Shown: one piece after another, positions 32,159 through 60,349 of the stretch
How positions within the stretch are numbered: position 1 is the first letter of the stretch
Layout: each line of letters opens with the position of its first letter
NCBI GenBank assembly: GCA_964639725.1
Contig: CAZXFB010000001.1
Coordinates: 180,400-244,399 of the forward strand
Length of the DNA stretch: 64,000 nucleotides
Direction of reading: 5' to 3'
DNA from: an uncultured Rikenellaceae bacterium
GTDB lineage: Bacteria > Bacteroidota > Bacteroidia > Bacteroidales > VadinHA17
The notes under the pieces: generated by a model
What the model saw: only the letters and a program-made list of their open reading frames with translations
Database searches by the model: none
Told to the model about the DNA's origin: nothing
Position numbers and translations under genes: made by a program

Positions 32159-32434
32159 TCAACATACTCCATAACTGCATGGATAAAAAAAACAATCATA
32201 GTGATCCATAGTAATACAGGAATAATAAATCTGAGGTTGCCCGTAATGATCAATGCAACGACCACATACCCAGTGTGTGAGATCTTCTGGTGGGTCTTCA
32301 CCATCAGCAAGAGCACTTTTGGTGAGAGAAACTGAAATGTTCAGAGGGTCATTCTTGCCTAATACAACTTTAACATTCACAAAAACAACCCCCAGCATTA
32401 ATAAAGCTACGGTAATCATAATTTTCTTTTTCAT
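32159..32434 (-). CDS. Cys-rich secreted peptide precursor, NVEALA-like (cassette 1)
   Basis: MKKK plus hydrophobic segment, SALA|DGEDPP, 6-Cys core. Confidence 0.75.
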   Translation of the reverse strand: MKKKIMITVALLMLGVVFVNVKVVLGKNDPLNISVSLTKSALADGEDPPEDLTHWVCGRCIDHYGQPQIYYSCITMDHYDCFFYPCSYGVC

Positions 32435-32502
32435 AATTGTAAGGTTTTAAATGAATACTACTCTGTAAAGTTCAACAATCAGGGTGAATTGAAAGTGCTA
32501 GA

Positions 32503-32703
32503 TTATGTGGAAATTTGAGGAAAATTGGGGGTTTTTGGGACTCCAAAGGTTTCATAAATTATTATTAGATGGCATGGTTTAATTATTCCTGAAGGAATTA
32601 TGAGATCTTCCATTATTAACCATTTGTTAAGAGTTTTTCTGTCTATGCCATACTCATCGGCGATTTCCTGTCTGGTTTTGGCTCTAATTATCGGTGTCTC
32701 CAT
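32503..32703 (-). CDS. Small helix-turn-helix protein (DUF4248-like)
   Basis: KTRQEIADEYGIDRKTLNKWL..IYETFGVP; TAAATTTG (minus strand) at 32719-32726 favours ATG 32703 as the start. Confidence 0.6.
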   Translation of the reverse strand: METPIIRAKTRQEIADEYGIDRKTLNKWLIMEDLIIPSGIIKPCHLIIIYETFGVPKTPNFPQIST

Positions 32704-32963
32704 AATCGGTATTATTTGCAAATTTAAGTTAATACTTCGTTTCTCTTAAACGGTTTATTTTGGTACTCACCCACGAAAAGAAGAAGAACTCCAAAAAATT
32801 AAAGTGTTTTTATTTGCATGAAAGGATGCATATTAATAAATCAGTAGTAGATTGAAAAAATATTAACTTGGTTATTCTTTATGTCATTTGACTCCACTGT
32901 CATTTTTTGTCATTATTAATTCTTTCATTAAAAAATTCTTTTCTAATCTCTTTCGGGTTAGTT

Positions 32964-33490
32964 CGCCGCTTGCGGCGTAAAAGTAATATCTTTGTATGTA
33001 TGAGCGAAAGCGAATACATTCATAATCGCGTAATGTTTCGGTATTGTTATTTCATTTTGTATGTCCGGCCAAATATCGGAGAGTGGTAGTAAGTAATGAG
33101 GTTGATAAAACGTTGAAAGACACATGTCTTGAAATAGAAAAGAGATATGAACTTCACTTTCTTGAGATAGGGACGGACAACGATCATATCCATTTTTTGA
33201 TACAATCGATTCCAAGAATTAGTCCGACCCAAATTATATCGATTGTGAAAAGTATTACGGCCCGAGAGGTTTTCAGAAAAAATCCAAAAGTGAAAGAAAA
33301 GCTTTGGGAAGGAGAATTTTGGAGTGATGGGTATTTTGTTAACACTGTCAGTAAATTTGGAGATGAGACAAGTATTTCGAAATATGTTCGAGATCAAGGA
33401 CTTGAAAAAGAGTTCGTAGTTTTGCATCAAAGTAAACAGTTGGTTTTGGTTTAAGATACCCAGTTGTTTGTGGCTGGGAGCTTCATTTTT
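32964..33490 (+). mobile_element. tnpA: IS200/IS605-family element with frameshifted tnpA
   Basis: ATG 33000 (MSESEYIH) is out of frame with HFVCPAKYRR..DHIH..FWSDGYF..YVRDQ ending at 33454; left hairpin CGCCGC-TT-GCGGCG, right imperfect hairpin CCCAGT..GCTGGG. Confidence 0.85.
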
Positions 33491-33559
33491 AAATGCGTTT
33501 TTAATTAAAACAAAATGACTATCAGGAATGAATAATAATAGTTCAGCATGCTTCATGTA

Positions 33560-33642
33560 CGCCCCCTTCTCTTGCAGGCAAAAGAAGGGGGAGCAAATGT
33601 TTTGCCCCGCTTTGCGAAGCAGAGAGGGGTTGGGGTGAGTTC
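33560..33642. repeat. REP-like palindromes
   Basis: CCCCCTTCT..AGAAGGGGG stem followed by CCCC..GAGAGGGGTTGGGGTGAG, resembling the ends at 54317 and 54499. Confidence 0.5.
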
Positions 33643-33752
33643 ATAAAATAATATGATTGATATATAATCACTTAATATAATTTATTACTGATAACAAATA
33701 GTCATATAAACAAATTAAACAAAAGCCATTTTGTAAGTGGTACTGATATTTT

Positions 33753-33905: not shown

Positions 33906-34008
33906 ATTTGCTGCTAGTCATTGACTTACACAATAATATTTTATCGAAGTTATTATGAGGTTTTAAATTAAACAATAGGGTATTTTTCCAAAGACTTAAA
34001 ATCCTTTG

Positions 34009-34077
34009 TAATTGGTCGAAATTTTTCATAACTGGTCATTATATTTCATAAATGGTCAAAATATTTATTAACTGGTC
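34009..34077 (-). promoter_or_regulatory. Four LytTR-type direct-repeat boxes, 20-bp period
   Basis: GACCA(G/T/A)TTA on the minus strand at 34069, 34049, 34029, 34009; two more boxes at 33755 and 33734. Confidence 0.75.
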
Positions 34078-34079
34078 AT

Positions 34080-38991: not shown

Positions 38992-39603
38992 CTAATTATT
39001 TCCAATAATGGTTCTTATAGTTTCAATATATTTATCTGTTAAATCAGGAAATAAACTGTTTGGTGAAAAGAAATAATCAATTTTTCTGTTTTTCGAAATA
39101 ATAAAATAATGTGGAATTTTTTCATTATCAGCAGGAATACCTAACTGTGGATTAGCAGGTATTAAATGATAAATTTTCTTCTTAAAGACTCTTTCCTTAA
39201 TATTCGGATTATATTTTGAAGTAATGATGATAATTTGATTATTTACTTCAAAGTCAGAAAAGGAAGACTTAATCTTATCAATTGCAAAACTAATACATGA
39301 TACGCAAACATCTTCAGAATAAGGCAGATATATCACTAAAGCGGGCAACTGTAAACTTTCTGGGATTATTTCGATTATTGAATCGTTCATGTCGGATGAA
39401 ATTAAAGCTCTGTTTACCTCTTTATCGTCGTTTGTGAATGTAGAAATTAAGTCTCTTTTAAGCATCCCATTTAATGATACAGTCGAATAATAATAGTCTT
39501 TCAGCTTCTTAAAATCTCTAAATTTGAGAAATAGAAATATATCAATGGAAAGAAGTAAAATTATTCCAAAAACAATGATGAATTTTACAAACTTTTTGCT
39601 CAT
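38992..39603 (-). CDS. Membrane-anchored CxxC thioredoxin-like protein (cassette 2)
   Basis: N-terminal TM, CVSC, IPHYFII..FFSP; start placed at MSKK. Confidence 0.65.
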   Translation of the reverse strand: MSKKFVKFIIVFGIILLLSIDIFLFLKFRDFKKLKDYYYSTVSLNGMLKRDLISTFTNDDKEVNRALISSDMNDSIIEIIPESLQLPALVIYLPYSEDVCVSCISFAIDKIKSSFSDFEVNNQIIIITSKYNPNIKERVFKKKIYHLIPANPQLGIPADNEKIPHYFIISKNRKIDYFFSPNSLFPDLTDKYIETIRTIIGNN

Positions 39604-39613: not shown

Positions 39614-40771
39614 TTATTTAAGTTTGTATTTAACAATTATTGGATTATCATCTTCCTTTATTCTCTTTAGTCTGTCATTAGAATTATTATCTAATAGATC
39701 TGTCGAAATTACATATTTTACATAACTTGGTTCACTAAAGAAATATAAATAATTATTATCCAATAAATTAGGCACAGGTAATTGTCCGATTGAATGTGTG
39801 AGATTATGCCCCAATTGTAATTCTTTAGTTGTTTTATTATATTTAACTACATGAATTTTTTTTTCAAATAAATAGAAAACTAATAGGAATTCATTATTTT
39901 CTTTAATATCAGTCACAAATGCGTACTTATTATCATTGTTGAGAATAAAAGACCTGTAAAATTCTTTTTGTCTTTTATTAGGCAATAAATCTAAAGTGAA
40001 ATTATGATCTCCAAAATTCAACTCAATATCCTTTTTGATATCTAATTTTAGTGGATCAACTAAATAAACAATATTAGAAGGGAATTTGTGAAAAAAATAA
40101 AGTTGATCATTAAAAAAATTGAATGGATTGCTAATTGTAGAGGAAAGATTTTTAATTTTTTTAGGTAAAGGAGCTGCTTTGTTTAATATTTTACCGCTAG
40201 TTAAAGAATAGAAGATTAAACTTCCTTTTCTATTTTGACTAAATTGAGAATAAAAAAGATATACATCTTCTGAGAGAGCTTTGAAGTTAACTAAGAAGGG
40301 TGAAATTTCAGGAGCTAAAGGAATAAAATTCTTATAGTTTCCATCAATATCATATAATTTAATTTTCCTGCTAGGTGCATCTAGTATCTCTAAGTTTTCG
40401 GTATAGGGATTTATATTGAAATCCATTAAATTTGAATATTGCCCTGGTCCACGGCCTTTCTGATTTAAAGTATTAAACAAAAACTCCCCTTCTTTATCGA
40501 ATACAAAAATGGCATGATTTATTCTATCATGAATATAAAATCTATCCTTATAGATTTCAACTTTGTGACAATTACCTAAAATGCTTTGTTTATTAGTTTG
40601 TAGGGGAATTAGTTCAATAGATGAGCAAAATGCATTTAATTCTAGATTTTTTGAATCCTGGGGATTTATTTCTAAAATAAGGCTGCCGTCTTGTTTGGAT
40701 TTTTTAGAACAACTAAAAAAAATCACTAACCCTAACAATGTTAGGAACATGTAAAAATGTTCTTTTTTCAT
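39614..40771 (-). CDS. 6-bladed beta-propeller lipoprotein (cassette 2)
   Basis: FFSC lipobox, IPLQT, KGRGPGQY, DDNPIIV. Confidence 0.85.
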   Translation of the reverse strand: MKKEHFYMFLTLLGLVIFFSCSKKSKQDGSLILEINPQDSKNLELNAFCSSIELIPLQTNKQSILGNCHKVEIYKDRFYIHDRINHAIFVFDKEGEFLFNTLNQKGRGPGQYSNLMDFNINPYTENLEILDAPSRKIKLYDIDGNYKNFIPLAPEISPFLVNFKALSEDVYLFYSQFSQNRKGSLIFYSLTSGKILNKAAPLPKKIKNLSSTISNPFNFFNDQLYFFHKFPSNIVYLVDPLKLDIKKDIELNFGDHNFTLDLLPNKRQKEFYRSFILNNDNKYAFVTDIKENNEFLLVFYLFEKKIHVVKYNKTTKELQLGHNLTHSIGQLPVPNLLDNNYLYFFSEPSYVKYVISTDLLDNNSNDRLKRIKEDDNPIIVKYKLK

Positions 40772-40901: not shown

Positions 40902-41213
40902 CTAACAGGGCATATGAAGAGCACAAAAATCACTCATATAGCCAGTCCAATCACACTCTGTCCACCAAAAGGGTCCAAAGGGAGTCCATTCCATAACACA
41001 ATCATCTTGAAAACATTGTCCCTCATTGCCTGACGAACATATTATTTCTACCGGAGGTAACTCAATTTGAGCATTTGCTTTCTGCATTAAAGAAGATAAC
41101 GTGAATGCAGTGGAGATACTTTTGCCATTTTCTTTATTAAAAATACTGACATTAGAAATAAGTACACCAACAAAAAAAGCACTTACTATCAAGTACAAAA
41201 TTCTTTTTTTCAT
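40902..41213 (-). CDS. Cys-rich secreted peptide precursor, NVEALA-like (cassette 2)
   Basis: MKKR plus TM, KANA|QIELPPVEIIC, 6-Cys core. Confidence 0.78.
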   Translation of the reverse strand: MKKRILYLIVSAFFVGVLISNVSIFNKENGKSISTAFTLSSLMQKANAQIELPPVEIICSSGNEGQCFQDDCVMEWTPFGPFWWTECDWTGYMSDFCALHMPC

Positions 41214-41316: not shown

Positions 41317-41763
41317 TCAAAACATTAATCCGGTTGCTTTAATATATAATCCAGATAAAATGATGCATAATCCGGGTAAAATAGTATACAATTTCATGTT
41401 AGTGCGTGGTGGTATTTCATCCTTTCCTTTTAACAACCGGTTAACTATTACTTTTCGGTCTTTTGCGACGGTTATTAATTGCTTATTTATCAATTCAATT
41501 TCACGGTTTTTAGAATCATAAATTAGGCGGAAGTCAAGGTTAACTAAGCATTTGGCATGGCAGCGTAAAAACCTATAACTTTTAAGTTTTTCTGCTATCT
41601 CTTTTAAACTGTGTGTAGCTATTATAATCTCATTTGAAATTAAAATAATATCCACCTTTCTGCCTTTCGATATGCAGTATACTATTTCATCTGGGTTTAT
41701 TAGCTGTATGTTTTGCCTAGTTTTAATAAATATTGACTTTATTTTGAAATTGTTCATATGCAT
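41317..41763 (-). CDS. Stand-alone LytTR DNA-binding protein
   Basis: INPDEIVYC, SLKEIAEKL..FLRCHAKCLVNL; no receiver domain. Confidence 0.85.
   Translation of the reverse strand: MHMNNFKIKSIFIKTRQNIQLINPDEIVYCISKGRKVDIILISNEIIIATHSLKEIAEKLKSYRFLRCHAKCLVNLDFRLIYDSKNREIELINKQLITVAKDRKVIVNRLLKGKDEIPPRTNMKLYTILPGLCIILSGLYIKATGLMF
41326..41376 (-). promoter_or_regulatory. Three direct-repeat boxes, 21-bp period
   Basis: TAATCC(G/A)G on the plus strand at 41326, 41347, 41368. Confidence 0.65.
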
Positions 41764-43889: not shown

Positions 43890-43900
43890 TAATTTTCGAT

Positions 43901-46369: not shown

Positions 46370-46771
46370 TTGTTTATGGAAAATATAAGAGATCTTTTAC
46401 CATTTTTAAAAGATGCAGGAATACTCCATCTTAAATACCATTCAAGGCATATATCTGTTAATCCTGAAGAAATCCTATTTTGTAAAGCCGAAGGCAGCTA
46501 TACAAAAGTTGTTATTGAAGGTAACTTTTCGGATATTTTAGTTTCTAAACCTCTTAAACTATTTCAAAGGTGCATTCCTTTAGAAATGTTTCTGCGATGC
46601 CATTACTCCTATTTGATTAATATTAAGAAAGTTCAATCTTTTGACAGTAAGAAGAAAATTATTGCATTTGAAGAATGCTTTATTCCGATTTCAAGAAGAA
46701 AAGCCAATAATATCTTTAGTATTTTATCAGATTTGGGCATTCATGATGTTAGAAATAGTAGCCAAATATAA
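46370..46771 (+). CDS. Stand-alone LytTR DNA-binding protein
   Basis: ILFCKAEGSYT, FLRCHYSYLIN, IPISRRK. Confidence 0.88.
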   Translation: MFMENIRDLLPFLKDAGILHLKYHSRHISVNPEEILFCKAEGSYTKVVIEGNFSDILVSKPLKLFQRCIPLEMFLRCHYSYLINIKKVQSFDSKKKIIAFEECFIPISRRKANNIFSILSDLGIHDVRNSSQI

Positions 46772-46830
46772 AATATTTCGACCACTTAAAAGAAAAATTG
46801 ACCAGTTATGAAAAATATCAACCACTTACA
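46761..46830 (+). promoter_or_regulatory. LytTR-type direct-repeat boxes, 20-bp period
   Basis: ACCA(C/G)TTA at 46781, 46801, 46821; degenerate copy at 46761. Confidence 0.78.
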
Positions 46831-47243
46831 AAGAATTTTCATAATTCGGAAAAATACACTGTTGTCTTATACAAAGATGCATTTTAATTTTAAAAGCATT
46901 TTATAATGAAAGAATATGGGATTAATTTTTGAAGAATGACAAAAGCAAATAATAATAAATGGCAGCAAAGCAAATGACAACTGAATGACGGCGAAGCCGA
47001 ATGATGCACGAAGTGTAAATGACGAATAGTAAATAACTATATAAGTATTACCCACGGAAAGAAAAAGGGCAGAAAGCATTACAAGTTTACGACTTTAGCT
47101 TACTGCCCCGGAACCTTTCCTAAAAAAGAAAGGAGTAAGGGCATAAAAATAGTAAAAAATCAATAGTAAGCAAATGGTTTGCCGGCCAGATTGGAAAAGC
47201 TGAACTTGATATAAACATAAATATGAATTTACCTCTAAATTTT

Positions 47244-47534
47244 ATGAAAATGAAAAGGATAAGTCTAATAATTTCATCAATTGCATTAATATTTGCAATT
47301 ATTTTAAGCGTTTTGCCTGCTAACCTGAATTTCAATTCAGTCAAATTACATACTTTTCTTCAGATAGCAATTGCTGAAGGAGAAGATCCACCACTAGAAA
47401 TGAAATGGACTGATGATATAAATTGTGATTACCCATGTCCAGGTGATTATAATAAATGCAGTTACCTCGGAGAAGGTAATGTTTGTGATACTTGGGGAGA
47501 AACAACTTGTACTTGTTGTGTGAATTGTATGTAA
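47244..47534 (+). CDS. Cys-rich secreted peptide precursor (cassette 3)
   Basis: MKMKR plus TM, IAIA|EGEDPP, 8-Cys core. Confidence 0.78.
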   Translation: MKMKRISLIISSIALIFAIILSVLPANLNFNSVKLHTFLQIAIAEGEDPPLEMKWTDDINCDYPCPGDYNKCSYLGEGNVCDTWGETTCTCCVNCM

Positions 47535-47640: not shown

Positions 47641-48768
47641 ATGAAAAAGAAAGTAATATTATTGATTTGTATCGTTTTTTTTCTGACTTTTTGCCATAAC
47701 AATAATAATAAAAAAACCGACACGATTCCGACATTAAAAATTGCCGAGGATCTAATTATACATAATGTAAAATATTCCGATATAATTAAGGATTATAAGT
47801 TTATCCCGCTGGAAACAACAAAAGAGAGTGTTATAGGACAAATTGATAAAATAATATTCCATAATAATCAATTTTTTATTTTTGACATCCTGAAGGCAAA
47901 GTCAATATTTGTTTTTTCGTTGGAGGGTAAATTCTTATGGAAACTTTCTAAAATTGGAAAAGGGCCCGGGGAATTTATTGAACCGGTTGATTTTTGTTTT
48001 GAGCCTGTGACAAACAATTTAGTTGTTATGAATTTAAAGCAGCTGATATATTATGATGATAAAGATGGCACTTATCTAAAAACACTGACTTTACCTACTT
48101 TCGGATATAAATTTGATTTTCCTGATGGAAATCATATTTCATACGTAAATGCAAAAAGGGATTACAATTTAGTTGTCATAGATACCAGGGGAAAAAAGGA
48201 AAATAGTTTTTTTAAATATATTAAAGAAACCAGATTGGTACTTAATTGTCCATTTATCAGGAATGATGCATCTGAATTGTTATATTTAGCTAATCTGGAT
48301 TATGTCATATACAAAATAGACGGGAGCAATTTAATCCCATATATCAGAATAGATTTTACAAAAGATATGTACTCACCGGATGATTTGAATTTATTAAAAG
48401 AAGATAAATCGAACCGCAATAATTTTTATCATATAACAAATTATTTTGAGGGTGCAGATAAAATTTTTATTCAATATCTGTATAAGAAAACACCATATTA
48501 TTTAATTAGCGATAAGGAGGCTGAAAAGACAATAATTTTAAATTACAATGAAATCGAAAACGACATTACATTCACTGATTTATTACCAAGGATAATTACA
48601 TGTAATTCAGATGATAAAATTATTTCAATTCTTGAAACAAGCGAATTAAAAAACGCTGTTAAAAATAAAGATATTTCTAATGATAAACTTAAGAAAATGC
48701 TACAAGGAATAACAGATTCCATGGAATTAACAGATAATCCTATTTTATTCTTATTCAAATTTAAATAG
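47641..48768 (+). CDS. 6-bladed beta-propeller lipoprotein (cassette 3)
   Basis: LTFC lipobox, IPLET, GKGPGEF, DNPILF. Confidence 0.85.
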   Translation: MKKKVILLICIVFFLTFCHNNNNKKTDTIPTLKIAEDLIIHNVKYSDIIKDYKFIPLETTKESVIGQIDKIIFHNNQFFIFDILKAKSIFVFSLEGKFLWKLSKIGKGPGEFIEPVDFCFEPVTNNLVVMNLKQLIYYDDKDGTYLKTLTLPTFGYKFDFPDGNHISYVNAKRDYNLVVIDTRGKKENSFFKYIKETRLVLNCPFIRNDASELLYLANLDYVIYKIDGSNLIPYIRIDFTKDMYSPDDLNLLKEDKSNRNNFYHITNYFEGADKIFIQYLYKKTPYYLISDKEAEKTIILNYNEIENDITFTDLLPRIITCNSDDKIISILETSELKNAVKNKDISNDKLKKMLQGITDSMELTDNPILFLFKFK

Positions 48769-48769
48769 A

Positions 48770-49393
48770 ATGTTGCGAAATATTACAACAATAATTTTAT
48801 CAGTATTTCTTTTGTTTCTGGCTGTAAATTGTTATTTTCTGAAGAGAAAAGTTACGCATTTTAGTTTTAATAATAAAGCTATATCAGAAGAAGTTGATTA
48901 TCTTAATGAAGATATCTCACAAATACTTGAAAATGAAAAATTGATGACTAAATCGGAGTATTCAGTTATTGACCCGTTAACACAACTTATTACAATCAGG
49001 AATGATACCGTTCTTTTAAAAGAGCTGGTTCGAAAAAAAGGTAAACTAATTCTCTATTACAGCGAGCAATATTGTGACATATGTTATAAAAACCTTCTTC
49101 GACACATAAACGATTATATAACAAATACAGGTACCAAAAATATTATAATACTTGCAGAATATGAAAACCCAAGAAACTTTAATTATTTTATAAATCATAA
49201 TGAAATTAGAGCAAAAATATATTTAACTCACAAGGGTATTATTTTCCCATCCCAGAAAGGGAATCAACCATTTTTTTTTATGCTTGATAATTCTTTCCTG
49301 GCTAAATATGTAAATGTCCCAAATAAGAAGTATCTTAAAAATATTGATTTGTATTTACGCACTGTTGATGAATATATAACCAAAAAAAATTAA
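48770..49393 (+). CDS. Membrane-anchored CxxC thioredoxin-like protein (cassette 3)
   Basis: N-terminal TM, CDIC, QPFFFMLD..VP. Confidence 0.7.
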   Translation: MLRNITTIILSVFLLFLAVNCYFLKRKVTHFSFNNKAISEEVDYLNEDISQILENEKLMTKSEYSVIDPLTQLITIRNDTVLLKELVRKKGKLILYYSEQYCDICYKNLLRHINDYITNTGTKNIIILAEYENPRNFNYFINHNEIRAKIYLTHKGIIFPSQKGNQPFFFMLDNSFLAKYVNVPNKKYLKNIDLYLRTVDEYITKKN

Positions 49394-49406: not shown

Positions 49407-52400
49407 GTGAAACCCAAATTCCCATCATTTACCATAATAATCATTTTCATCCTCCTCATCCTTTGCGGAATACCGCTTATTCATTACCTTAACCTGGAAT
49501 TAAGTCCCAGCTCAACATCATCTTCACTTTCGGTGCGGTTCTCGTGGAATGGCGCCGAACCACGTATCATAGAACAGGAAGCAACATCGAAGCTCGAGGC
49601 CCTCTTTGCCAAAGTTAATGGAATAAGAAATATAAGTTCCACTTCGGGCAACGGAAGCGGCAATATTAATCTTACCCTCGATAAACATGCAGATCCGGAT
49701 GCTGTCAGGTTTGAAATAAGTACTCTAATAAGGCAGGTTTGGCCTGATATGCCTGCCGGCACGCGTTTCCCGGGATTGTATGTTAACAGCTCCGATCAGG
49801 AAAAACGTCGCCCACTGCTGACTTACAAGCTGAATGCTCCCCATTCGCCTCCTCTGGTGAACCAATATGCCGATGACAATATTAAACCTGTGCTGTCTCA
49901 AATACCGGGTATAAGTAAAATTGATATTTACGGAGCGTCTCCTCTTGAATGGATCATAGAATACAATGCAGAAAAACTAAAATCAGCAGGCATAACCACT
50001 GGCGATATTCAAAATATTGTTAATCTCGGACTTAAGAAAATAAACATGGGAGTTGGTTTGTTGCCTGTAAAGAAACCCAATAATGAAAATCAACCGGTTT
50101 ACACATCCACTATACCGGTTACTTTACAAACCCGCTTTTTAACAGGAGAAGATATTCTTAATATACCAGTCAAAAAATCTGGTGACCGTATTGTCTATTT
50201 AGCGGATGTTGCCACCCTGAAGCATGTTGAGGGTCAACCTTCATCCTATTACCGTATCAATGGCCTCAATACCATCAATATCCTTGTAGATGCCGGTCCG
50301 GGTGAAAATAATCTGGTAGTTGGGAAAAAGGTTAAAGAAACCGCTCAACAAATCTCCTCCACATTACCGCCAGGTTATGAATTGCTTCTGAGCGACGATT
50401 CAACCGAATATATTACCCATGAGTTACACAATATTGCTCTGCGCTCGCTATGTACATTTTTAATATTATTGTTTTTTATATTACTGGTTACCAGAAAAAT
50501 AAAGCATGCTCTTCTGATCCTGATAATGCTAGTTGGCAACCTTAGCATTGCAGTAATTTTATATTATCTCTTCAGACTCGAAATACACCTGTATGCTCTT
50601 GCCGGAATCACAGTGTCGCTGGGACTGATGACTGATAACATCATCATAATGAGCGACCATATTCGTACGCGCGGAAACAGAAAAGCATTTCTTGCAATCC
50701 TGGCGGGCACGCTTGCAACAATATCGTCTCTTGTTGTTATCTTTTTCCTGAAAGAACAGATAAAAGCCAACCTGGTCGATTTTGCACTTGTTATAATCAT
50801 CAACCAGTCGGTTTCGCTTCTCACGGCCCTTTTTGTCATCCCGGCTCTGATGGATAAATTGAAACTTGATAAACAGCATCTGCAGGTAAAAAACCAAAAT
50901 CTCAATATTCAATCTTCTTCGTCTGATGTAATAATAAAAATTACCAGGAGAAAAAAGAGTGGAACAAAGCGGAAACGGAGATTCATTATCCGTTTTACAA
51001 ATTTATATCGAAAGGTGTTTTTGTTCTTCAGAAGATGGAAAGCAATAGCCATAATTGTTTTTATCCTGGGGTTTGGATTGCCAATATATATGCTGCCTGA
51101 TAAATGGGAGGGCGAAAATTGGTATAACAGAAGTTATAACGCCACTATTGGTACCGTTTGGTACAATGAGAACCTTAAATCCTGGGCAGATAAATTTACC
51201 GGAGGAGCTTTACGCCTCTTTACCACTAAAGTTTCAGATGGTTCATATTTCAGGACTCCTGAGGAAACATCGCTATACATCACTGCAACAATGCCAAGGG
51301 GAACAACTTTGTCACAGGCAAATGATATTGTAACAGGAATGGAAACCTACCTTAAACAATTTAATGAGATAAAATTATTCCAGACCAATATTACTTCGCG
51401 CAATGCCTCTTTAAGTGTTTACTTTAAAAAAGAGTATCAACTTAGTGAATTCCCTTACATCTTAAAAGGAGAAGTAATATCCAGAGCTATTGATCTTGGC
51501 GGAGCTGATTGGTCGGTTTATGGTTTCGGCGACGGTTTCAGCAACAGGATTTATGAAAGTGCCGGTAATTATTCAATAAGCATGCTTGGCTATAATTATG
51601 ATAAGTTAATTTCCATGGCAGAAATTCTTATGGATAGTCTTACTCAAAACCCCCGCATAAAACAGGTTTATGTTGTATCGGAACGCACATATTACAAACC
51701 CGATAATACCGAGTTCGTGGTTCATGTAGATAAGGAACACGCCATTACAACTGGTATAGTACCTGCCAATATGTATAGTTCATTGCAAAACTGGTCGCTT
51801 AATCAGCCCTCCTTTGCTGCGCTGGTAACTGACAGGGGGCTGGAAGGCATAAGTCTCAGACAACAAAAGAGAAATGAGCCCGATGTATGGACTCTTGCCC
51901 GCCAGCCCCTTAATCGCGATTCGGTTATGTACAAGTTTAATGTCTTTTCTACGATAGAGAAGGAGGCAACTGCTCCGGTCATAAGTAAAACAAACCAGCA
52001 GTACCAGGTTTACCTGCAATTTGATTATATAGGTTCCGACCAGTTTGCACGTAAATATATTAACGAAAAAGTCGATAATTTCAAACCTCTTGTTCCATTA
52101 GGTTATACTGTCTCATCAGGTAATACAGGTTTCTACTGGTGGGGGCAGCAGGATAAAAAGCAATATTGGTTATTGCTGCTTATCGTGGTAATGATCTTCT
52201 TTATCTGTGCTGTTTTGTTTGAGTCGTTATTGCAGCCTTTTGCAGTGATATTGACAATTCCTGTCGCATACATCGGTATCTTTCTTACGTTTTATCTTTT
52301 TGGTCTTAATTTCGATCAGGGCGGGTTTGCTGCGTTGGTAATGCTTAGTGGTATTACAGTTAATGCTGCCATCTACATCCTTAACGATTTCAACAACCTG

Positions 52401-52679
52401 CGCAGGCAAAATAAAGAAAGAATTATACCTGATATTAGGCTCTATTTCAAAGCATTCAATTACAAAATTATTCCTATATTGCTAACAGTGGTCTCTACTG
52501 TACTGGGCTTTGTTCCCTTTCTGATTGGCGAAAAGCAACCTTTCTGGTTTGCCCTTGCAGCAGGTACAATCGGAGGGTTACTATTCTCACTTTTAGGAAT
52601 TGTGTTTTATTTACCATTGTTTCTTGGAATTAAGAAGCAGTCGGAAGTCGGAAGTCGGAAGTCAGAAGTTAAAAGTTGA
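49407..52679 (+). CDS. RND efflux permease (AcrB/CzcA family) 1
   Basis: 1090 aa, two TM bundles, LFESLLQPF, GITVNAAI. Confidence 0.9.
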   Translation: MKPKFPSFTIIIIFILLILCGIPLIHYLNLELSPSSTSSSLSVRFSWNGAEPRIIEQEATSKLEALFAKVNGIRNISSTSGNGSGNINLTLDKHADPDAVRFEISTLIRQVWPDMPAGTRFPGLYVNSSDQEKRRPLLTYKLNAPHSPPLVNQYADDNIKPVLSQIPGISKIDIYGASPLEWIIEYNAEKLKSAGITTGDIQNIVNLGLKKINMGVGLLPVKKPNNENQPVYTSTIPVTLQTRFLTGEDILNIPVKKSGDRIVYLADVATLKHVEGQPSSYYRINGLNTINILVDAGPGENNLVVGKKVKETAQQISSTLPPGYELLLSDDSTEYITHELHNIALRSLCTFLILLFFILLVTRKIKHALLILIMLVGNLSIAVILYYLFRLEIHLYALAGITVSLGLMTDNIIIMSDHIRTRGNRKAFLAILAGTLATISSLVVIFFLKEQIKANLVDFALVIIINQSVSLLTALFVIPALMDKLKLDKQHLQVKNQNLNIQSSSSDVIIKITRRKKSGTKRKRRFIIRFTNLYRKVFLFFRRWKAIAIIVFILGFGLPIYMLPDKWEGENWYNRSYNATIGTVWYNENLKSWADKFTGGALRLFTTKVSDGSYFRTPEETSLYITATMPRGTTLSQANDIVTGMETYLKQFNEIKLFQTNITSRNASLSVYFKKEYQLSEFPYILKGEVISRAIDLGGADWSVYGFGDGFSNRIYESAGNYSISMLGYNYDKLISMAEILMDSLTQNPRIKQVYVVSERTYYKPDNTEFVVHVDKEHAITTGIVPANMYSSLQNWSLNQPSFAALVTDRGLEGISLRQQKRNEPDVWTLARQPLNRDSVMYKFNVFSTIEKEATAPVISKTNQQYQVYLQFDYIGSDQFARKYINEKVDNFKPLVPLGYTVSSGNTGFYWWGQQDKKQYWLLLLIVVMIFFICAVLFESLLQPFAVILTIPVAYIGIFLTFYLFGLNFDQGGFAALVMLSGITVNAAIYILNDFNNLRRQNKERIIPDIRLYFKAFNYKIIPILLTVVSTVLGFVPFLIGEKQPFWFALAAGTIGGLLFSLLGIVFYLPLFLGIKKQSEVGSRKSEVKS

Positions 52680-53172: not shown

Positions 53173-53206
53173 AAATTTTACTTAAAAACCCTAATTTAAC
53201 TCCAAT

Positions 53207-54310
53207 ATGAAAAAATACTATAATATGAATATCCTAAAAACCCTCCCATTTCATTTAATTCTCCTTTGCCTTGTGATAAGTTCCTGCAAACAGAAAGGTA
53301 GCGAAACCAAAACTGCTGCTGAAGATAAAAAGGAGTCAGTTGCTGTAAATGAAGATAAACAGAAGGTATCTGTCATGGTACTTCGTTATGGTGAATTTAA
53401 TAAGGAGATCATCAGCAATGGTAAACTGATAGCATTAAAAAAGGCAGATCTTAAATTCCGCACCACCGAGAATGTTGCCACTGTTTATGTAAAAAATGGT
53501 GACAGGGTTATGTATGGTCAGGTTATTGCAAAACTCGAAAACTTTACCCTGTCCAATACATTAAAACAGAGCCGGAACCAATTCGATAGAGCAAGGATAG
53601 ATTTTCAGGATGTCCTTATAAGTCAGGGTTATAATATCAAAGACACATTAACTATTCCTGAAGGTATTATGAAAACTTCACGGATAAAAAGTGGTATTGA
53701 TAAAGCAGAGTCCGACCTTGAGATGGCCGAATACAACCTTAGGGCCTCAGTATTGAAATCTCCGATTTCCGGGATTGTAGCCAACCTTTTCTCAAAGGAA
53801 GATAATTTATCAAATCAGTCTGAAAAGTTCTGTACCATAATAGACGACAGTCGCTTCGAAGCCGAATTTCCAGTTCTCGAAAGCGAGCTGGCTTCGGTAA
53901 AAATAGGACAAACAGTTAGAATCATACCTTACTCTTACAACAATGTTGTGGTAAAAGGTGAAGTAATAAAAATAAATCCTGTTGTGGACCAGAATGGTAT
54001 GGTAAAGGTTGATGCTGTTTGTAACAATGTAGATCACAAACTATTTGAAGGAATGAACATCAAAATCGTGCTGGAAGAAAAAGTCCCGCATAAGCTGGTT
54101 ATCCCAAAACAAGCCGTTGTTCTTCGCAGCGAAAGACAGGTGGTATTCACGTACAAAGCCGGTAAAGCTATGTGGGTATATGTCAAAACCGGACTGGAAA
54201 ACATATCATCGTTTGTTGTAACTGAAGGATTACAGGAGGGTGATTCGGTTATTTATGAAGGGAATCTTAATCTGGCGCATGAGGCTGGTGTGGTTATTGA
54301 TAGTAATTAA
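53207..54310 (+). CDS. RND periplasmic adaptor (MFP) lipoprotein
   Basis: ISSC lipobox, VKNGDRV..GQVIA, LKSPISGIV, IPKQAVV. Confidence 0.9.
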   Translation: MKKYYNMNILKTLPFHLILLCLVISSCKQKGSETKTAAEDKKESVAVNEDKQKVSVMVLRYGEFNKEIISNGKLIALKKADLKFRTTENVATVYVKNGDRVMYGQVIAKLENFTLSNTLKQSRNQFDRARIDFQDVLISQGYNIKDTLTIPEGIMKTSRIKSGIDKAESDLEMAEYNLRASVLKSPISGIVANLFSKEDNLSNQSEKFCTIIDDSRFEAEFPVLESELASVKIGQTVRIIPYSYNNVVVKGEVIKINPVVDQNGMVKVDAVCNNVDHKLFEGMNIKIVLEEKVPHKLVIPKQAVVLRSERQVVFTYKAGKAMWVYVKTGLENISSFVVTEGLQEGDSVIYEGNLNLAHEAGVVIDSN

Positions 54311-54316
54311 CAAGGA

Positions 54317-54529: not shown

Positions 54530-54618
54530 ACTCAAACATCAAGACAAAATGCCAAACAAAGGCCAAATGACACGCGAAGCGCAAATGACAGTGAAGCAAA
54601 TGACTAATATTAACCAGA

Positions 54619-57600
54619 ATGATTAAGTTCTTAATAACCCGCCCGATAGCAGTAATAATGGTCTTCATCGCAGCCGTTGTTCTGGGTATTGTAGCATACC
54701 ACACACTGCCTGTTTCTCTCATGCCCGACATTCCTATTCCTGTGGTAACGGTAAACATAACCTATAAAAACAGTTCAGCACGTGAGCTGGAGAATGCAGT
54801 CGTAAAGCCAGTGCGGGCTCAGCTTATGCAGGTGGCACATCTTAGTGAAATAAAGAGCGAAACCCGCGACGGACAGGCAGTCATTAACCTGAGCTTTGAC
54901 TACGGTACAAATGTTGACTATGCATTTATTGAGGTAAACGAGAAAATTGACGGCGCCATGAACTCCTTTCCCCGCGATATGGAGCGTCCTCGGGTTATAA
55001 AGGCAAGCGCCACTGATATACCTGTTTTCTACCTGAATTTATCGTTAAAAGATGCAGATTCACTTCGTTCCGATAATTCCGACGAAGCAGATGACCGGTT
55101 TATCGAACTGAGCGAATTTGCCGAATCTGTCATCCGTAAACGGATAGAACAGTTACCCGAAGTGGCCCTGGTTGACATCAGTGGCACAGTAAGTCCTCAG
55201 CTTACCATTGAGCCAGACATGCAGAAAATGCAGAGTCTTAACTTTTCGCTTTCACAGCTGGAAAATGCTTTAACGCAGAACAATGTGAATGCAGGCAGCA
55301 TGATGGTACGCGACGGGCATTACCAGTATAATATCCGCTTTACATCTGTGTTACGCAATAAAGAAGATGTAGAAAAGATATTCATTAAAGCTTCCGGGAA
55401 AATATTCCAGCTTAAAGATATTGCGCAGGTTAGCATTGATCCTCAGAAACGTACCGGCATGTTTGCAGCCAACAGCAAACCGGCAATAACAATGGCAGTA
55501 ATAAAACAGGCAAATGCCAGGCTTGCCGATATGAAAGATAAGATCAGGCAAATGGTCAACCGGTTTGAAAAGGACTATCCGGGTATTCATTTCGAAGCTA
55601 CCCAGGACCAGACACAGCTTCTCGATTACTCCATTTCAAACCTGAAGCAAAACCTGGGTCAGGGATTGTTGCTGGTAATATTAGTGGTTTTCATCTTCAT
55701 GAAAGATCTGAAGCTGCCTTTACTGATCGGCTTGTCATTAATGGTTTCCGTTATCATTTCGCTGCTGTTTTTCAGTATGATGCATCTCTCCATCAACATC
55801 ATTTCTCTTGCCGGTCTTATTCTTGCTGTTGGAAATATGATGGATAATTCCATTGTGGTAACAGATAATATAAGTCAGTACCGCGAACGAAACTTCACGG
55901 TTGATGAAGCCTGTGTTAAAGGTACAGGTGAAGTGATCATTCCCCAGCTTAGCTCCATGCTGGTTAACGTGGCTGTATTTCTGCCACTGATTTTCCTTAG
56001 CGGGATTGCAGGGGCTCTTATGTATGATGAAGCAATTTCGGTTTCTATCGGACTCTCGGTTTCATATATTGTCGGTATCACCTTTATGCCGGTTATTTAC
56101 CGGTTGGCATACAAGCGTGTCTACAAAGCCGAAAACAAGATCCTGCAGGTTAAAGAAAAATTGTTTAATGTTCTGGGAACCGGCTTTAAAAAAATCTTCG
56201 ACCTCGATAAAGTTTACACATCGGGACTGGACTTTACTTTCAAACACAGGAAACTGAATATTATAATGTACCTGATGATGCTCCCTATCGGGTTTATTGT
56301 GCTTATGGCAATACGTAAAGAAAAGATGCCTGCTCTCACACAGACAGAAACGATCATTACGGTTGACTGGAACGAGAACATAAACGCAGGCGAGAACAAG
56401 CTCCGTGTTTCCCGTTTACTTAAGACTATTGAACCTGAAACATTGCAAAGTAATTCTTTTATCGGCCGTCAGCAGTTCCTTCTTAACCGCGACAAGGAAA
56501 TGAGCCCATCCGAAGCGCGGATATATATTAAAACAGATATTCCTGAGAACGTCAACCGGATTGAGGATAAGGTGAAAAAGTTTGTTACTGAGCAGTATGG
56601 CAGAGCGAGGTTCGGATTTGAAGCTCCCACTTCCATTTTTGAGAAACTGTTTACCAGCAGCGAACCTCCCCTGGTTGCAGAACTTTCGATGATTAGCACC
56701 AATATTGAACCCGACATATCCGCTCTTTTAAAGACCTGCGGAGAATTGAATGGTGACAGAGTGCTAATGTCAGCAAACAAAATACCTCTTCAGGAGCATA
56801 TAGTACTTACTGTTGATATGGAGAAGCTATTGTTATACAATGTCTCCTACGATGCTTTGCTTAAGGAGCTTAGAACCGGTTTCAAGGAAAACAGTATTGG
56901 GATGTTACGCTCTTTTCAACGATTTATCCCTATTGTAATTACAGGTAAAGAAATGCTTGTAACCGAAATAATAGGTACCAGGGGGATCACCAATAACGAA
57001 AACGTAGTTATCCCGTTAAGTGCCCTTGTAACAATCTCTAAAGGTCAGGATCTGAAGACGATCACAGCGGGAAAAGAAGGGGAATTTATACCACTCCTGT
57101 TTTCACCCGAAGGAAATCAAAAAGACCGGTTTGTTAAACAAATCAAAAATTCGGTGCAAAAATCCGGGGTGTTCGATGTCCGTTTTTCAGGTTCTGTTTT
57201 TTCCAACCTGAAGCTACTGAAGGAAATAGGCATTTTGCTGATTATTTCAGTACTGCTGTTGTATTTTATCCTTGCCGCACAGTTTGAATCACTTGTCCAG
57301 CCACTCCTGGTGCTTATGGAAATACCCATTGATATTGCTGCAGCATTACTTGTCCTGTATATTGCAGGTCAGTCACTTAACCTTATGTCGGCAATGGGCA
57401 TGGTAATTATGTGCGGGATCATCATCACCGATTCAATCCTGAAACTCGATGTTATTAACCAGCTGCGAAAAGAGGGGTATCCATTGCTTGAGGCTATCAG
57501 GACAGGAGGTCATCGCAGATTAAGAGCTATAATAATGACAAGCTTAACCAGTATCCTTGCCATGTTGCCTCTGTTATTCACCAACGATCTTGGAAGCGAA

Positions 57601-57720
57601 CTGCAAAAACCATTTTCCTATGCACTTATAGGAGGAATGGTGGTTGGAACAGTGGTAAGCTTGTTTCTCGTGCCGTTAGTGTATTGGTACATTTATAGGA
57701 ATGAAGAAATTAAGAAATAG
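54619..57720 (+). CDS. RND efflux permease (AcrB/CzcA family) 2
   Basis: ITRPIAV, MMDNSIVV, AQFESL.QP, RLRAIIMTSLT. Confidence 0.92.
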   Translation: MIKFLITRPIAVIMVFIAAVVLGIVAYHTLPVSLMPDIPIPVVTVNITYKNSSARELENAVVKPVRAQLMQVAHLSEIKSETRDGQAVINLSFDYGTNVDYAFIEVNEKIDGAMNSFPRDMERPRVIKASATDIPVFYLNLSLKDADSLRSDNSDEADDRFIELSEFAESVIRKRIEQLPEVALVDISGTVSPQLTIEPDMQKMQSLNFSLSQLENALTQNNVNAGSMMVRDGHYQYNIRFTSVLRNKEDVEKIFIKASGKIFQLKDIAQVSIDPQKRTGMFAANSKPAITMAVIKQANARLADMKDKIRQMVNRFEKDYPGIHFEATQDQTQLLDYSISNLKQNLGQGLLLVILVVFIFMKDLKLPLLIGLSLMVSVIISLLFFSMMHLSINIISLAGLILAVGNMMDNSIVVTDNISQYRERNFTVDEACVKGTGEVIIPQLSSMLVNVAVFLPLIFLSGIAGALMYDEAISVSIGLSVSYIVGITFMPVIYRLAYKRVYKAENKILQVKEKLFNVLGTGFKKIFDLDKVYTSGLDFTFKHRKLNIIMYLMMLPIGFIVLMAIRKEKMPALTQTETIITVDWNENINAGENKLRVSRLLKTIEPETLQSNSFIGRQQFLLNRDKEMSPSEARIYIKTDIPENVNRIEDKVKKFVTEQYGRARFGFEAPTSIFEKLFTSSEPPLVAELSMISTNIEPDISALLKTCGELNGDRVLMSANKIPLQEHIVLTVDMEKLLLYNVSYDALLKELRTGFKENSIGMLRSFQRFIPIVITGKEMLVTEIIGTRGITNNENVVIPLSALVTISKGQDLKTITAGKEGEFIPLLFSPEGNQKDRFVKQIKNSVQKSGVFDVRFSGSVFSNLKLLKEIGILLIISVLLLYFILAAQFESLVQPLLVLMEIPIDIAAALLVLYIAGQSLNLMSAMGMVIMCGIIITDSILKLDVINQLRKEGYPLLEAIRTGGHRRLRAIIMTSLTSILAMLPLLFTNDLGSELQKPFSYALIGGMVVGTVVSLFLVPLVYWYIYRNEEIKK

Positions 57721-57780
57721 CCGGAAGACGGAAGACGGAAGGTGGAAGTACTTCGGACTTCCGTCTTCGGACTTCGGACT
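57721..57780. repeat. Head-to-head heptamer repeats with no gene
   Basis: (CGGAAGA)n followed by (CTTCGGA)n. Confidence 0.75.
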
Positions 57781-57814
57781 AATTGAAAAATGACATAAAG
57801 AAACTACACAACCC

Positions 57815-59293
57815 ATGAAGCTAAATAGAATAATTTTACCAGTGCTGCTTTTAGTAACAGTTTCCGTTTCCGGACAAACAACTATGTCCCTTACAGATGC
57901 GATAAAATCTGCCACCGACAGTTCACTTGCTGCCTTTAAAGCACAAAACCTTTATTTGTCTGGCTATTGGGAATATCGTACTTACACAGCCCAGAAAAAA
58001 CCTGTTCTATCACTTAATGCCAACCTGTTCGATTACAACAGAGCATTGACCAAGGTCTATAATTCGGTGCTTAATATCAACGAATATATTGAACAACAGG
58101 ATATTTATTCCTATGCCAATGCCTCAGTCAGGCAGAACCTTCCTTTCAGTGGAGGGACTCTCTATTTTGATTCAGAACTCAGCCGGCTGCAAAATTTTGG
58201 ACAAAACAGGTATACCCAGTTTTCGACAGTACCCTTAAGGGTTGGACTAAGCCAGCCTGTTTACGGTTATAATCCATTTAAATGGCAAAAGAAAATAGCT
58301 CCGTTAAAATACGAGAAAGCAAAAAAAAGCTATCTGCAATCGGTGGAATTGATCTCCTCCAGAATGGTTGATTATTTTTTCGATCTGTTAGTTGCCAGGA
58401 TAAGAGTTTCCATGTCTGTTACAAATGTCGCCAATTCTGATACGTTGTATAGGATCGGTCAAAAACGTCTTGAAATTGCTTCACTTTCACTTGCTGAGGT
58501 TCTCACACTGAAAGTTGACGCTCTTAATGCACGTAACGATTTGGCAGAAGCGAATAAGCAACTAAAAAATGCACAATATGTTTTTAATTCATATCTGCGG
58601 TTTGATGAAAATAAAACAGTAGTACTTTCAATACCTGAAAATCTGCCCTCATACCAGATAAATTATAACGAAGTACTGCAGATGGCTATGTTAAACAATC
58701 CTGACCTCCTGGGATATCAGCAACAGATGCTTGAATCGGAAAGTGAACTTGAAAGGACAAAGCGGCAAAATCTTTTTAATGCATCCCTCAATGCCAGTTT
58801 TGGATTGAACCAGCAGAATCCGTTGCTCTCAGCAGCATACCGGGATCCGATGGACCAGCAGCGGGCATCAATTGCGTTAACTGTTCCTATAATAGATTGG
58901 GGTCAGGGCCGCGGAAAAGTGAATATGGCACAAAAGAACTATGAAGTAACCCGGCTGACGGTTGAACAGGCAAATGTTGATTTTCATCAGCAGGTAATAA
59001 TGGCTGTAACTAATTTTAACATGCAGCTTGATATTGTAAAAAGCGCAAGTGAAACAAAAAGTGCGGCACAGCAGGCTTATGAAATGAACAAACAACGTTT
59101 TGTGATTGGAAAAGCAGATGTCAACAGCCTTGGTCTTGCTCTTAACCGGCAGGATCAGGCTAATATCAATTATCTAAATGCACTGCGTTTATACTGGAAA
59201 TATTATTATAATATCAGGCAGCTCACTTTATACGATTTTGAGAACAGAAAGGCTCTTATACAGAATTTCGATGAAATATTTGGGGTAAGGTAG
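57815..59293 (+). CDS. TolC-family outer-membrane efflux protein
   Basis: Signal peptide, helical repeats, PIIDWG; follows RND and MFP genes. Confidence 0.88.
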   Translation: MKLNRIILPVLLLVTVSVSGQTTMSLTDAIKSATDSSLAAFKAQNLYLSGYWEYRTYTAQKKPVLSLNANLFDYNRALTKVYNSVLNINEYIEQQDIYSYANASVRQNLPFSGGTLYFDSELSRLQNFGQNRYTQFSTVPLRVGLSQPVYGYNPFKWQKKIAPLKYEKAKKSYLQSVELISSRMVDYFFDLLVARIRVSMSVTNVANSDTLYRIGQKRLEIASLSLAEVLTLKVDALNARNDLAEANKQLKNAQYVFNSYLRFDENKTVVLSIPENLPSYQINYNEVLQMAMLNNPDLLGYQQQMLESESELERTKRQNLFNASLNASFGLNQQNPLLSAAYRDPMDQQRASIALTVPIIDWGQGRGKVNMAQKNYEVTRLTVEQANVDFHQQVIMAVTNFNMQLDIVKSASETKSAAQQAYEMNKQRFVIGKADVNSLGLALNRQDQANINYLNALRLYWKYYYNIRQLTLYDFENRKALIQNFDEIFGVR

Positions 59294-59439
59294 AATGATG
59301 GTCATTGGTAGTCATTCAATGGTCATTCTAAAGTAAAACAAGTGTATGACAATCGAACGAAGCAAATGACACCGAAGGCTGAATGACTGCGAAGCCAAAT
59401 AACGTGAGAAACGCGAATGACAATTGAATGATATGGACC

Positions 59440-60020
59440 TTATTCCGATTTCAAGAAGAAAAGCCAACAATATCTTTAGTATTTTATCAGATTTGGGCAT
59501 TCAGGATTTCAGAAATCGTGACCAAGTGTAAAATATTTCGACCACTTATAAGAAATATTGACCAGTTATGAAAAATTTCAACCACTTACAAAGAATTTTC
59601 ATGATTCGGAAAAATACACCATAGTTTATTACAGAAATGCTTTTTAATTTTAAAAGTATTTTATAATGAAAAAGAATATGGGATTTATTTTTGAATATGA
59701 CAAAAGCAAATGATAATAAATGTCAGCAAACCAAATGACAACTGAATGACGGCGAAACCGAATGATGCACGAAGTGTAAATGACACATAGTAAATAACAA
59801 TATAATTATTAACCTACGGAAATAAAAAGGCCGGAAACATTTAAAGGGTGACTTTTTGGATCTGCCCCGTGCTCTGAGCCCTGCGCCCTGCGCCCTGCGC
59901 CCTGAGCTATTTGCTTCCCGCCCGGAACCTTTAAATAAAAGAAAGGAGTTAAGGCATAAAAATTGTTGAAAATCAATAATATGAAAATGGTTTTGCCAGC
60001 CAGAGAAGTTGAAGATGATA
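59440..60020 (+). repeat. Diverged duplicate of 46680-47210 (LytTR 3' end, boxes, leader region)
   Basis: TATTCCGATTTCAAGAAGAAAAGCCAA.. shared; boxes at 59521, 59541, 59561, 59581. Confidence 0.9.
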
Positions 60021-60052
60021 AATTTAATAATAAACACTTAAAATTATTGAAA

Positions 60053-60349
60053 ATGAAAAAGAAAGAAATCTTAATAATCAGTTCATTAGTTGGACTGTTT
60101 ATTTTCATTAATCTCTCGATTGGCTTAAAGATTACTCAATCAGGTCAGAAAACAGAGTTGATTTCTATTATTAAATCTGCATTTGCAGATGATGAAAACC
60201 CATCATATTGTGAAGTATGTGGCACAGGTGATTGCGGATTAGTGATGGGCACTTATTCATGTACCGATAAAATTAATACATATAAGCTTTGCGGAGTCGT
60301 CTGCTACACAAGTTCTTGTAATGTCTCAGAACAAACCACTTGTCCTTGA
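60053..60349 (+). CDS. Cys-rich secreted peptide precursor (cassette 4)
   Basis: MKKKE plus TM, SAFA|DDENP, 8-Cys core. Confidence 0.78.
   Translation: MKKKEILIISSLVGLFIFINLSIGLKITQSGQKTELISIIKSAFADDENPSYCEVCGTGDCGLVMGTYSCTDKINTYKLCGVVCYTSSCNVSEQTTCP

Follow-up and report, generated by a model that had tools for sequence, protein, structure and literature searches.

Three-gene cassettes for predicted exported disulfide mini-proteins and propeller lipoproteins in an uncultured Rikenellaceae bacterium

We analyzed a window of 64,000 nucleotides from contig C1 (CAZXFB010000001.1, positions 180,400 to 244,399) of the genome of an uncultured Rikenellaceae bacterium (GCA_964639725.1), in which four small open reading frames (ORFs) appear to encode precursors of cysteine-rich peptides. 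Coordinates are positions within the window, and features described as past the window lie on the same contig. A preliminary description, made from the sequence alone, had given each precursor a leader of 43 to 48 amino acids (aa) ending in Ala-x-Ala and an acidic core with six or eight Cys; every leader length, cleavage motif, core length, and Cys number was confirmed when the ORFs were read again (Table 1). The leader of precursor 3 would be 42 or 51 aa if other start codons were used. The net charges of cores 1 to 4 were -7, -9, -9, and -5. A fifth precursor, just past the window, has a 44-aa leader ending in AMA and a core with six Cys and a charge of -7, and a homologue of precursor 4 (P0107) retains the distal Ala-x-Ala and eight Cys.

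Each of the five precursor genes in the genome is followed by a gene for a DUF5128 propeller lipoprotein and then by one for a membrane-anchored CxxC thioredoxin-like protein, two partners that the preliminary description overlooked. The window propellers scored 105 to 148 bits against DUF5128 (PF17170, six-bladed propeller; cut-off, 22.9 bits), which places all four in this family, and the predicted fold of propeller 1 matched the solved Bacteroides fragilis protein 4RAA (Z, 29.6; root mean square deviation, 3.2 over 339 residues). The CxxC proteins are about 210 aa long with a single membrane segment. For the first of them, the predicted model (predicted local distance difference test score, 91.7) and a fold search, in which ResA was the top match, gave the thioredoxin fold, CxxC motif, and N-terminal anchor of ResA/TlpA-type proteins. 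Family matching at the sequence level gave one sub-cut-off AhpC-TSA match (1/4 proteins), and the CxxC was invariant in 29 of 29 aligned thioredoxin-like partners. The G+C content of the cassettes is 27 to 29%, compared with 37.6% for the genome. As read from its sequence, the genome carries five swappable three-gene cassettes around a common extra signal peptidase and efflux pump. Its five other propellers are on contigs C61, C103, and C146, where three of them come after double-glycine (GG)-leader peptides.

Table 1. Features of the window and of the adjoining part of contig C1
Feature	Position	Strand	Remarks
Precursor 1	32159..32434	-	Leader 43 aa ending ALA; core 48 aa, 6 Cys
Precursor 2	40902..41213	-	Leader 48 aa ending ANA; core 55 aa, 6 Cys
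Precursor 3	47244..47534	+	Leader 44 aa ending AIA; core 52 aa, 8 Cys
Precursor 4	60053..60349	+	Leader 45 aa ending AFA; core 53 aa, 8 Cys
Propeller lipoprotein 1 (DUF5128)	30867..32075	-	Predicted fold matches 4RAA
Propeller lipoprotein 2 (DUF5128)	39614..40771	-	Pfam match
Propeller lipoprotein 3 (DUF5128)	47641..48768	+	Pfam match
Propeller lipoprotein 4 (DUF5128)	60560..61756	+	Pfam match
CxxC (CNVC) membrane-anchored protein 1	30215..30853	-	Predicted long helix and ResA/TlpA-type thioredoxin fold
CxxC (CVSC) membrane-anchored thioredoxin-like protein 2	38992..39603	-	
CxxC (CDIC) membrane-anchored thioredoxin-like protein 3	48770..49393	+	
CxxC (CNSC) membrane-anchored thioredoxin-like protein 4	61761..62393	+	
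Small helix-turn-helix (HTH)-like ORF	32503..32706	-	Directly upstream of precursor 1; HTH matches all sub-threshold
IS200-family transposase	33044..33454	+	Separates shared upstream element from cassette 1
Repeat element, about 95 bp	33969..34066	-	20-bp-period ACCA(C/G)TTA repeats; 80-83% like elements preceding precursors 3 and 4
LytTR-only regulator	41317..41763	-	Upstream of precursor 2
Lipoprotein-like ORF, 285 aa	41989..42846	-	C-terminal tail with 10 Cys; no match to a family
Wzy_C (O-antigen-ligase-like) membrane protein with C-terminal TPR repeats	44227..46326	+	52.5 bits; cut-off, 31.7
LytTR-only regulator	46370..46771	+	Precedes precursor 3
LytTR gene end and repeat element	46680..47080	+	90% over 404 bp to 59440-59841
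Duplicated upstream region with repeat element	59440..59841	+	Precedes precursor 4
RND permease subunit 1	49407..52679	+	
RND periplasmic adaptor	53207..54310	+	TIGR01730 above cut-off
RND permease subunit 2	54619..57720	+	
TolC-family outer-membrane channel	57815..59293	+	
Second signal peptidase I of genome	62667..63842	+	TIGR02227, 128.6 bits; cut-off, 47; Ser and Lys motifs
Transglutaminase-like and F5/8 domain lipoprotein	C1:244309-246246		Past window
Small HTH-like ORF and fifth cassette	C1:246769-249527		After transglutaminase-like gene

Loci of relatives were fetched by three anchors: the thioredoxin-like protein, propeller 1, and the Wzy_C-TPR protein, for which the named records were mostly Bacteroidia. 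A profile grown from the genome's five leaders and run on 1,728 small ORFs, the leader-based mining that the preliminary description had proposed, recovered 45 distinct precursors. Another 45 were picked by position only, giving 90 relatives; six positional candidates had been excluded beforehand (three ORFs that did not resemble precursors, a lipoprotein, a fragment of a propeller, and a truncated gene). The 59 thioredoxin loci contained a propeller in 54, a recognised precursor in 36, and, within the fetched stretch, a signal peptidase in 12 and an RND subunit in 12. On these counts of propellers, peptidases, and pump subunits, the three-gene cassette is therefore read as the unit, with the shared machinery frequent nearby and not universal. 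At 23 Wzy_C-TPR loci, we found a long-leader precursor in 20, a propeller in 20, a thioredoxin in 16, a transglutaminase-like gene in 9, the first RND subunit in 7, and a signal peptidase in 6. Of the 39 thioredoxin-positive genomes, 11 had the Wzy_C-TPR gene itself (one of them provided a query row); none of the 25 negative genomes did. At an E value of 1e-8 or better, thioredoxin-marked cassettes were hit in 25 genomes out of 300 sampled from the order, some of the weakest hits possibly being ordinary thioredoxins, and a class-wide thioredoxin search gave 4 of 300 genomes. When peptide 2 was used in a word-based search, a single relative was recovered. Records labelled Ignavibacteriaceae and Clostridium (L055 and L064) also carry the cluster, and the Ignavibacteriaceae peptidase is 63% identical to that of the window.

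The 45 precursors found with the leader profile had leaders of 42 to 48 aa, with Ala at -1 in all 45 and at -3 in 41, counts that are partly circular because the seeds of the profile end in Ala-x-Ala. Of all 90 precursors, 66 had their last small-x-Ala site at least 16 residues beyond the hydrophobic window, 18 had it fewer than 12 residues beyond, and 6 had no such site; none had this site 12 to 15 residues out, so the precursors form two separate groups. An independent library search with a peptide-1 profile returned 52 hits, and 48 of the 51 small ones had the distal site. The distal cleavage site that had been proposed for the window thus recurs among relatives. A long leader is frequent without being a requirement, since 18 of the 90 carry a short classical signal peptide, and several members of the peptide 1 family (L119, L121, L130, P0092, and P0112) have lost the distal site, which argues against a strict-site rule. 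In L038, the homologue of peptide 2 carries a classical signal peptide that is short and has its first Cys 11 residues past the site, the same spacing as in peptide 2, and this supports the mature end assigned in the preliminary description.

In each of the 12 groups compared, similarity between paralogues was higher in the leader than in the core, with a narrow margin in two. Cores are exchanged behind near-identical leaders; in P0094, a leader close to that of peptide 1 is joined to an unlike core. The hypervariability ascribed to the cores holds between paralogues but not within a core family. Among 53 aligned sequences of the peptide 1 family, five Cys were invariant and the sixth was 96% conserved, with a Y-G-x-C end, and the six Cys of the peptide 1 frame were invariant in 15 aligned cores. 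At L057:2569-3164, two tandem peptide-3-like precursors have six Cys each, and peptide 3 has two extra Cys, which read as having been gained as a pair.

Four even Cys counts alone would be weak evidence because chance gives them 1 time in 16. The bias toward even numbers was also present among relatives, with 72 of 90 even (p about 1e-8; kin are not independent). Even counts were found in 40 of the 45 leader-profile precursors (35 of the 40 outside the window's genome; p, 7e-7) and in 35 of the 45 chosen by position only. For sequences with at least three Cys, the number was even in 33 of 38 leader-profile precursors versus 123 of 375 control ORFs; control ORFs with at least two Cys were even in 496 of 748. 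The acidity claimed for the cores likewise extended to relatives, 79 of 90 being net acidic. Glycosylation of the cores was considered and found no support: the Bacteroidetes glycosylation motif, D-(S/T)-(A/I/L/V/M/T), occurred in 6 of the 90 cores versus 11.7 in shuffles and was not enriched. Predicted disulfides are the simplest reading of the even Cys counts. DsbB was not found in the 98.9%-complete genome, which has one DsbD and one VKOR, the latter within a GG cluster. According to PMC6671954, Bacteroides is without general disulfide machinery, and bacteroidetocin clusters require their own thiol oxidoreductase; the cassettes studied here each have one dedicated candidate gene of this kind.

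Core type and propeller type varied together. In loci fetched by similarity to propeller 1 alone, all 15 propellers that scored above 160 bits on the propeller-1 profile and had a readable upstream peptide (12 distinct peptides) came with the peptide 1 frame; five more above 160 bits had no readable upstream peptide. Below 160 bits, the frame accompanied 1 of 12 propellers, a truncated one behind one of the same peptides. Within the set of 90, the frame occurred four times, three of these preceding the three top-scoring propellers. When similar cores were paired across genomes, the propellers ranked 1 to 4 of about 80 in seven of nine pairs, and same-genome propellers with unlike cores had a median of 50 bits. 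The best relative of propeller 3 (75% identical) comes after two peptide-3-like genes. A clustering of cores at 35% identity chained unrelated sequences, and its figure of 16/17 is not relied on. Tandem precursors stand before a single propeller in L047, L057, and L107, and peptide-less propeller arrays occur in L139, L141, L120, and L176. Orphan immunity genes occur in polymorphic toxin systems, and the gene pattern of toxin and immunity pairs, taken as a pattern only, is present here in a variable effector, an adjacent co-varying partner, and orphan partner arrays. In L139 and L141, a single precursor is followed by six to nine tandem propellers (up to nine in L141).

The gene families involved are already listed in databases, and the parts are in Pfam without a function. 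NVEALA (PF14055) genes lie beside DUF5128 or TolB_like (PF15869) propellers in Bacteroidales, the same neighbours as here, and NVEALA and window peptides have in common a basic start, a hydrophobic segment, an Asn, a spacer, an amphipathic stretch ending in A-x-A, and a Cys-rich tail. The window peptides do not contain the literal NVEALA motif, and none reached the PF14055 cut-off of 27 bits (peptide 1, 16.5 bits; peptides 2 to 5, no match). Three relatives that share the peptide 1 frame and propeller subfamily (L135, L129, and L125) did pass it, at 46, 44.7, and 29.1 bits, and we therefore regard the window peptides as divergent kin of NVEALA and not as scored members, a kinship missed in the preliminary description. 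The 52 peptide-1 profile hits also included literal NVEALA members. An Atlas search with peptide 1 gave leads that were all below 0.9, with one cluster having 14% PF14055. No function for NVEALA or DUF5128 was found in the literature searched, nor was a paper on the system, which subscription journals and supplements outside that scope might describe.

The same propeller family also follows the peptide in TIGR04149 (GG-Bacteroidales) clusters resembling those for ribosomally synthesized and post-translationally modified peptides (RiPPs), including those on C61, C103, and C146. The genome's GG clusters have sub-cut-off TIGR04149 leaders, a peptidase-ABC transporter, HlyD, VKOR, and a cytoplasmic glycosyltransferase, whereas the window cassettes have a signal peptidase, a thioredoxin, and the Wzy_C-TPR protein instead. 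C61 carries paralogues of both RND subunits. A LanC-like fragment is also present at the GG-leader Cys peptide loci of these three contigs. For TIGR04149-type clusters, radical-SAM forms are described in PMC4573289. Bacteroidetocins (PMC6671954) are likewise Bacteroidetes peptides with an even Cys number and a dedicated thiol oxidoreductase gene, but their double-glycine leader, of 15 to 16 aa, is removed by a peptidase-ABC transporter, their cores are basic, and they have no immunity protein. The leaders described here are of 42 to 48 aa, Sec type, and end in AxA, the cores are acidic, and each peptide has a propeller. Identity as bacteroidetocins, TIGR04149 RiPPs, or radical-SAM products was rejected on the A-x-A leader and on the position of the genome's 24 radical-SAM matches, none of which is on contig C1. 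Among the 31 window proteins scanned, there was no peptidase-ABC transporter of the GG-leader kind and no Lan family, in agreement with the earlier statement that neither a radical-SAM nor a lanthipeptide enzyme is visible. That statement passed over other candidate maturation proteins, namely, the CxxC protein of each cassette, the extra signal peptidase I, the Wzy_C-TPR protein, and the transglutaminase-like protein.

Sec-dependent class II bacteriocins and sublancin-type clusters pair a cognate immunity gene with signal-peptide export or with disulfide catalysts of their own. They belong to Gram-positive bacteria, are mostly cationic, have small immunity proteins, and are not known to include a propeller, an RND pump, or an extended leader. 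The present analysis measured the leader and parity statistics, the pairing of Cys frame and propeller, and the association with the block of peptidase, RND, and Wzy genes, all as read from sequence. A table for Bacteroides thetaiotaomicron, in PMC10434189, annotates BT0662 as an O-antigen ligase, BT0664 as a propeller, BT0667 as a signal peptidase, and BT0669 as an RND adaptor, and a laboratory strain therefore probably carries the locus. The comparison offers a testable role for NVEALA and DUF5128, together with the extra signal peptidase and RND pair, and points to a large natural library of disulfide frames with matched binders.

We propose, with a probability of about one-half, that the cassettes encode exported disulfide mini-proteins released by a distal AxA cut and accompanied by matched propeller partners, probably for antagonism. 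The precursor would be exported by Sec, with the hydrophobic segment serving as a putative inner-membrane tether while it folds, and its disulfides would form in the periplasm through the cassette's own thioredoxin-fold protein. The cluster's second signal peptidase, or the housekeeping one, might then cut at the distal Ala-x-Ala, about 25 residues out, and the mini-protein could cross the outer membrane via the two-subunit RND/TolC pump. Outside the cell, the released acidic mini-protein would act as an antibacterial effector, and the cognate propeller would bind and neutralize the cell's own product, thereby providing immunity. The LytTR proteins may act via the shared upstream repeats. Antagonism with immunity is favoured because the cassettes are AT-rich and swappable, because propeller arrays without peptides occur, and because the same propeller family lies beside bacteriocin-type GG peptides. 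Sequence and comparison show how the cassettes are laid out, that the site is conserved, that Cys numbers tend to be even, and that cores and propellers co-vary; the biogenesis half of the proposal is firmer than the function, and antagonism is its weakest link.

A more elaborate form of this proposal, which we consider somewhat unlikely, is a widespread and wholly extracytoplasmic peptide pathway of Bacteroidia with a tethered precursor, a private thioredoxin, a dedicated leader-cutting signal peptidase, two-subunit RND export, and one immunity propeller per disulfide frame, in which the Wzy_C-TPR and transglutaminase-like proteins possibly tailor the precursor. If true, this pathway would be a periplasmic counterpart of the GG-leader clusters that share propellers and pump paralogues.

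Several observations weigh against antagonistic disulfide mini-proteins made in this way. ResA-type folds typically act as reductants and not as oxidants, and DsbD is present in the genome. The signal peptidase does not appear obligatory: besides its low frequency and that of RND subunits at the thioredoxin loci, long leaders occurred at 10 of 11 loci with an extra signal peptidase versus 8 of 18 without (p, 0.019; kin are not independent), and G022, G014, G039, and G053 have long leaders yet gave just the three fragment matches that a single peptidase gene typically yields, their assemblies being fragmented. Such genome-level peptidase counts are of gene fragments, with tandem copies in several genomes, and do not separate dedicated from housekeeping enzymes. 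The pattern for the peptide 1 frame was defined after the sequences had been seen, two of the nine similar-core pairs (both Ser/Gly-rich) did not show propeller co-variation, and co-variation of adjacent genes could arise by linkage alone. Charge complementarity between core and propeller was tried and rejected, since the correlation over 82 pairs (rho, -0.35) was not significant within genomes (r, -0.15; p, 0.24; 57 pairs in 21 genomes). The cores are acidic, versus the basic bacteroidetocins without an immunity protein. On the other side, slight support for expression comes from four RNA libraries of a single freshwater study, whose contigs covered all four precursor genes at high identity in 4/4 runs (partially for X1 on precursor 3), including precursors 1 and 4, which lie outside the region by which the runs were identified. 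Because the same runs thinly covered 24 to 28 of 30 bins in the first stretch, carry-over of DNA is possible, and we give this coverage little weight. Over precursor 4, RNA-library contigs from the four runs begin within 25 bp of each other (59798-59823), although contigs cannot show a start site.

With the same biogenesis, the peptides could instead be strain-specific signals that the propeller receives or captures, with a feedback loop closed by the LytTR-only regulators. The predominantly acidic cores, the LytTR-only genes preceding precursors 2 and 3, and the 20-bp-period repeat, which occurs three times in the genome and always upstream of a cassette, would suit such a role. We nevertheless consider it unlikely, as none of the 31 window proteins scanned was recognised as a sensor kinase or anti-sigma factor, a propeller of the lipoprotein type lacks its own signalling segment, and the peptide-less propeller arrays fit immunity better. 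A metal carrier, in which a ResA-like protein keeps the Cys reduced and the periplasmic peptide is passed to the RND pump or propeller, would explain the ResA match of the thioredoxin-like partner, the CxxC in 28 of 90 cores, and the presence of DsbD with the absence of DsbB, and even counts suit Cys4 or Cys6 sites too. This reading is decidedly improbable, given many different Cys spacings, few His (mean, 0.84 per core), RND subunits nearer the general RND model than CusA/CzcA (none at cut-off), and the fact that a carrier would need no separate propeller for each core family.

The peptides might also be accessory subunits, chaperones, or inhibitors of a propeller lipoprotein that is itself the functional surface protein; they would then remain in the envelope, and lipoprotein maturation would be the role of the shared genes. 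Core-propeller co-variation suits any binding partner, 53 of 138 propellers were without a small upstream gene, and short-leader forms were often without the shared machinery nearby. A conserved leader, a swappable core, and the tandem precursors are the pattern of secreted peptides, however, and an accessory role seems very improbable next to the antagonistic mini-protein that we prefer.

In the surrounding genes, the second signal peptidase I belongs to the S26 type by its family score and catalytic Ser and Lys motifs and is 32% identical to the genome's other copy (contig C2). The Wzy_C-TPR protein invites comparison with the PglL/WaaL-type oligosaccharyltransferases that lie beside their substrates (PMC3643930), in that a Wzy_C protein likewise adjoins small exported proteins. 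It differs by its C-terminal TPRs and by Phe-Asn-Glu in 24 of 24 aligned members at the position expected for the functional His (WaaL H338/PglL H349), an equivalence taken from motif position and not from direct alignment to WaaL or PglL; the matches obtained were confined to the TPRs. The protein may not be a glycan transferase.

The 20-bp-period repeats stand upstream of cassettes 1, 3, and 4 and represent a putative LytTR box; the upstream region of cassette 3 appears to have been copied to cassette 4. The exact repeat pattern had no match in 186 loci of relatives, and a looser pattern was found in L058, plus a tandem repeat in L066/L072. A scan for sigma-70 promoters gave results at chance level. 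Small HTH-like genes lie upstream of both precursors 1 and 5 and recur in 5 of 59 thioredoxin loci. The 285-aa lipoprotein-like ORF had no Pfam match, and its Atlas leads were all below 0.9; its 10-Cys, Ser-rich tail resembles a fused core. Divergent to this gene is a pair encoding a DUF2975 membrane protein and a Cro-type HTH protein (43194-44146, +). Between cassettes 1 and 2 are genes for an 832-aa exported protein without a family match (34597-37095, -) and a MutS-like ATPase (37359-38744, -). A four-helix-bundle (23S rRNA IVP) gene lies within the RND operon (52600-53055, +), and such a gene is also found among the RND genes of C61 and in L066, L069, L078, and L133.

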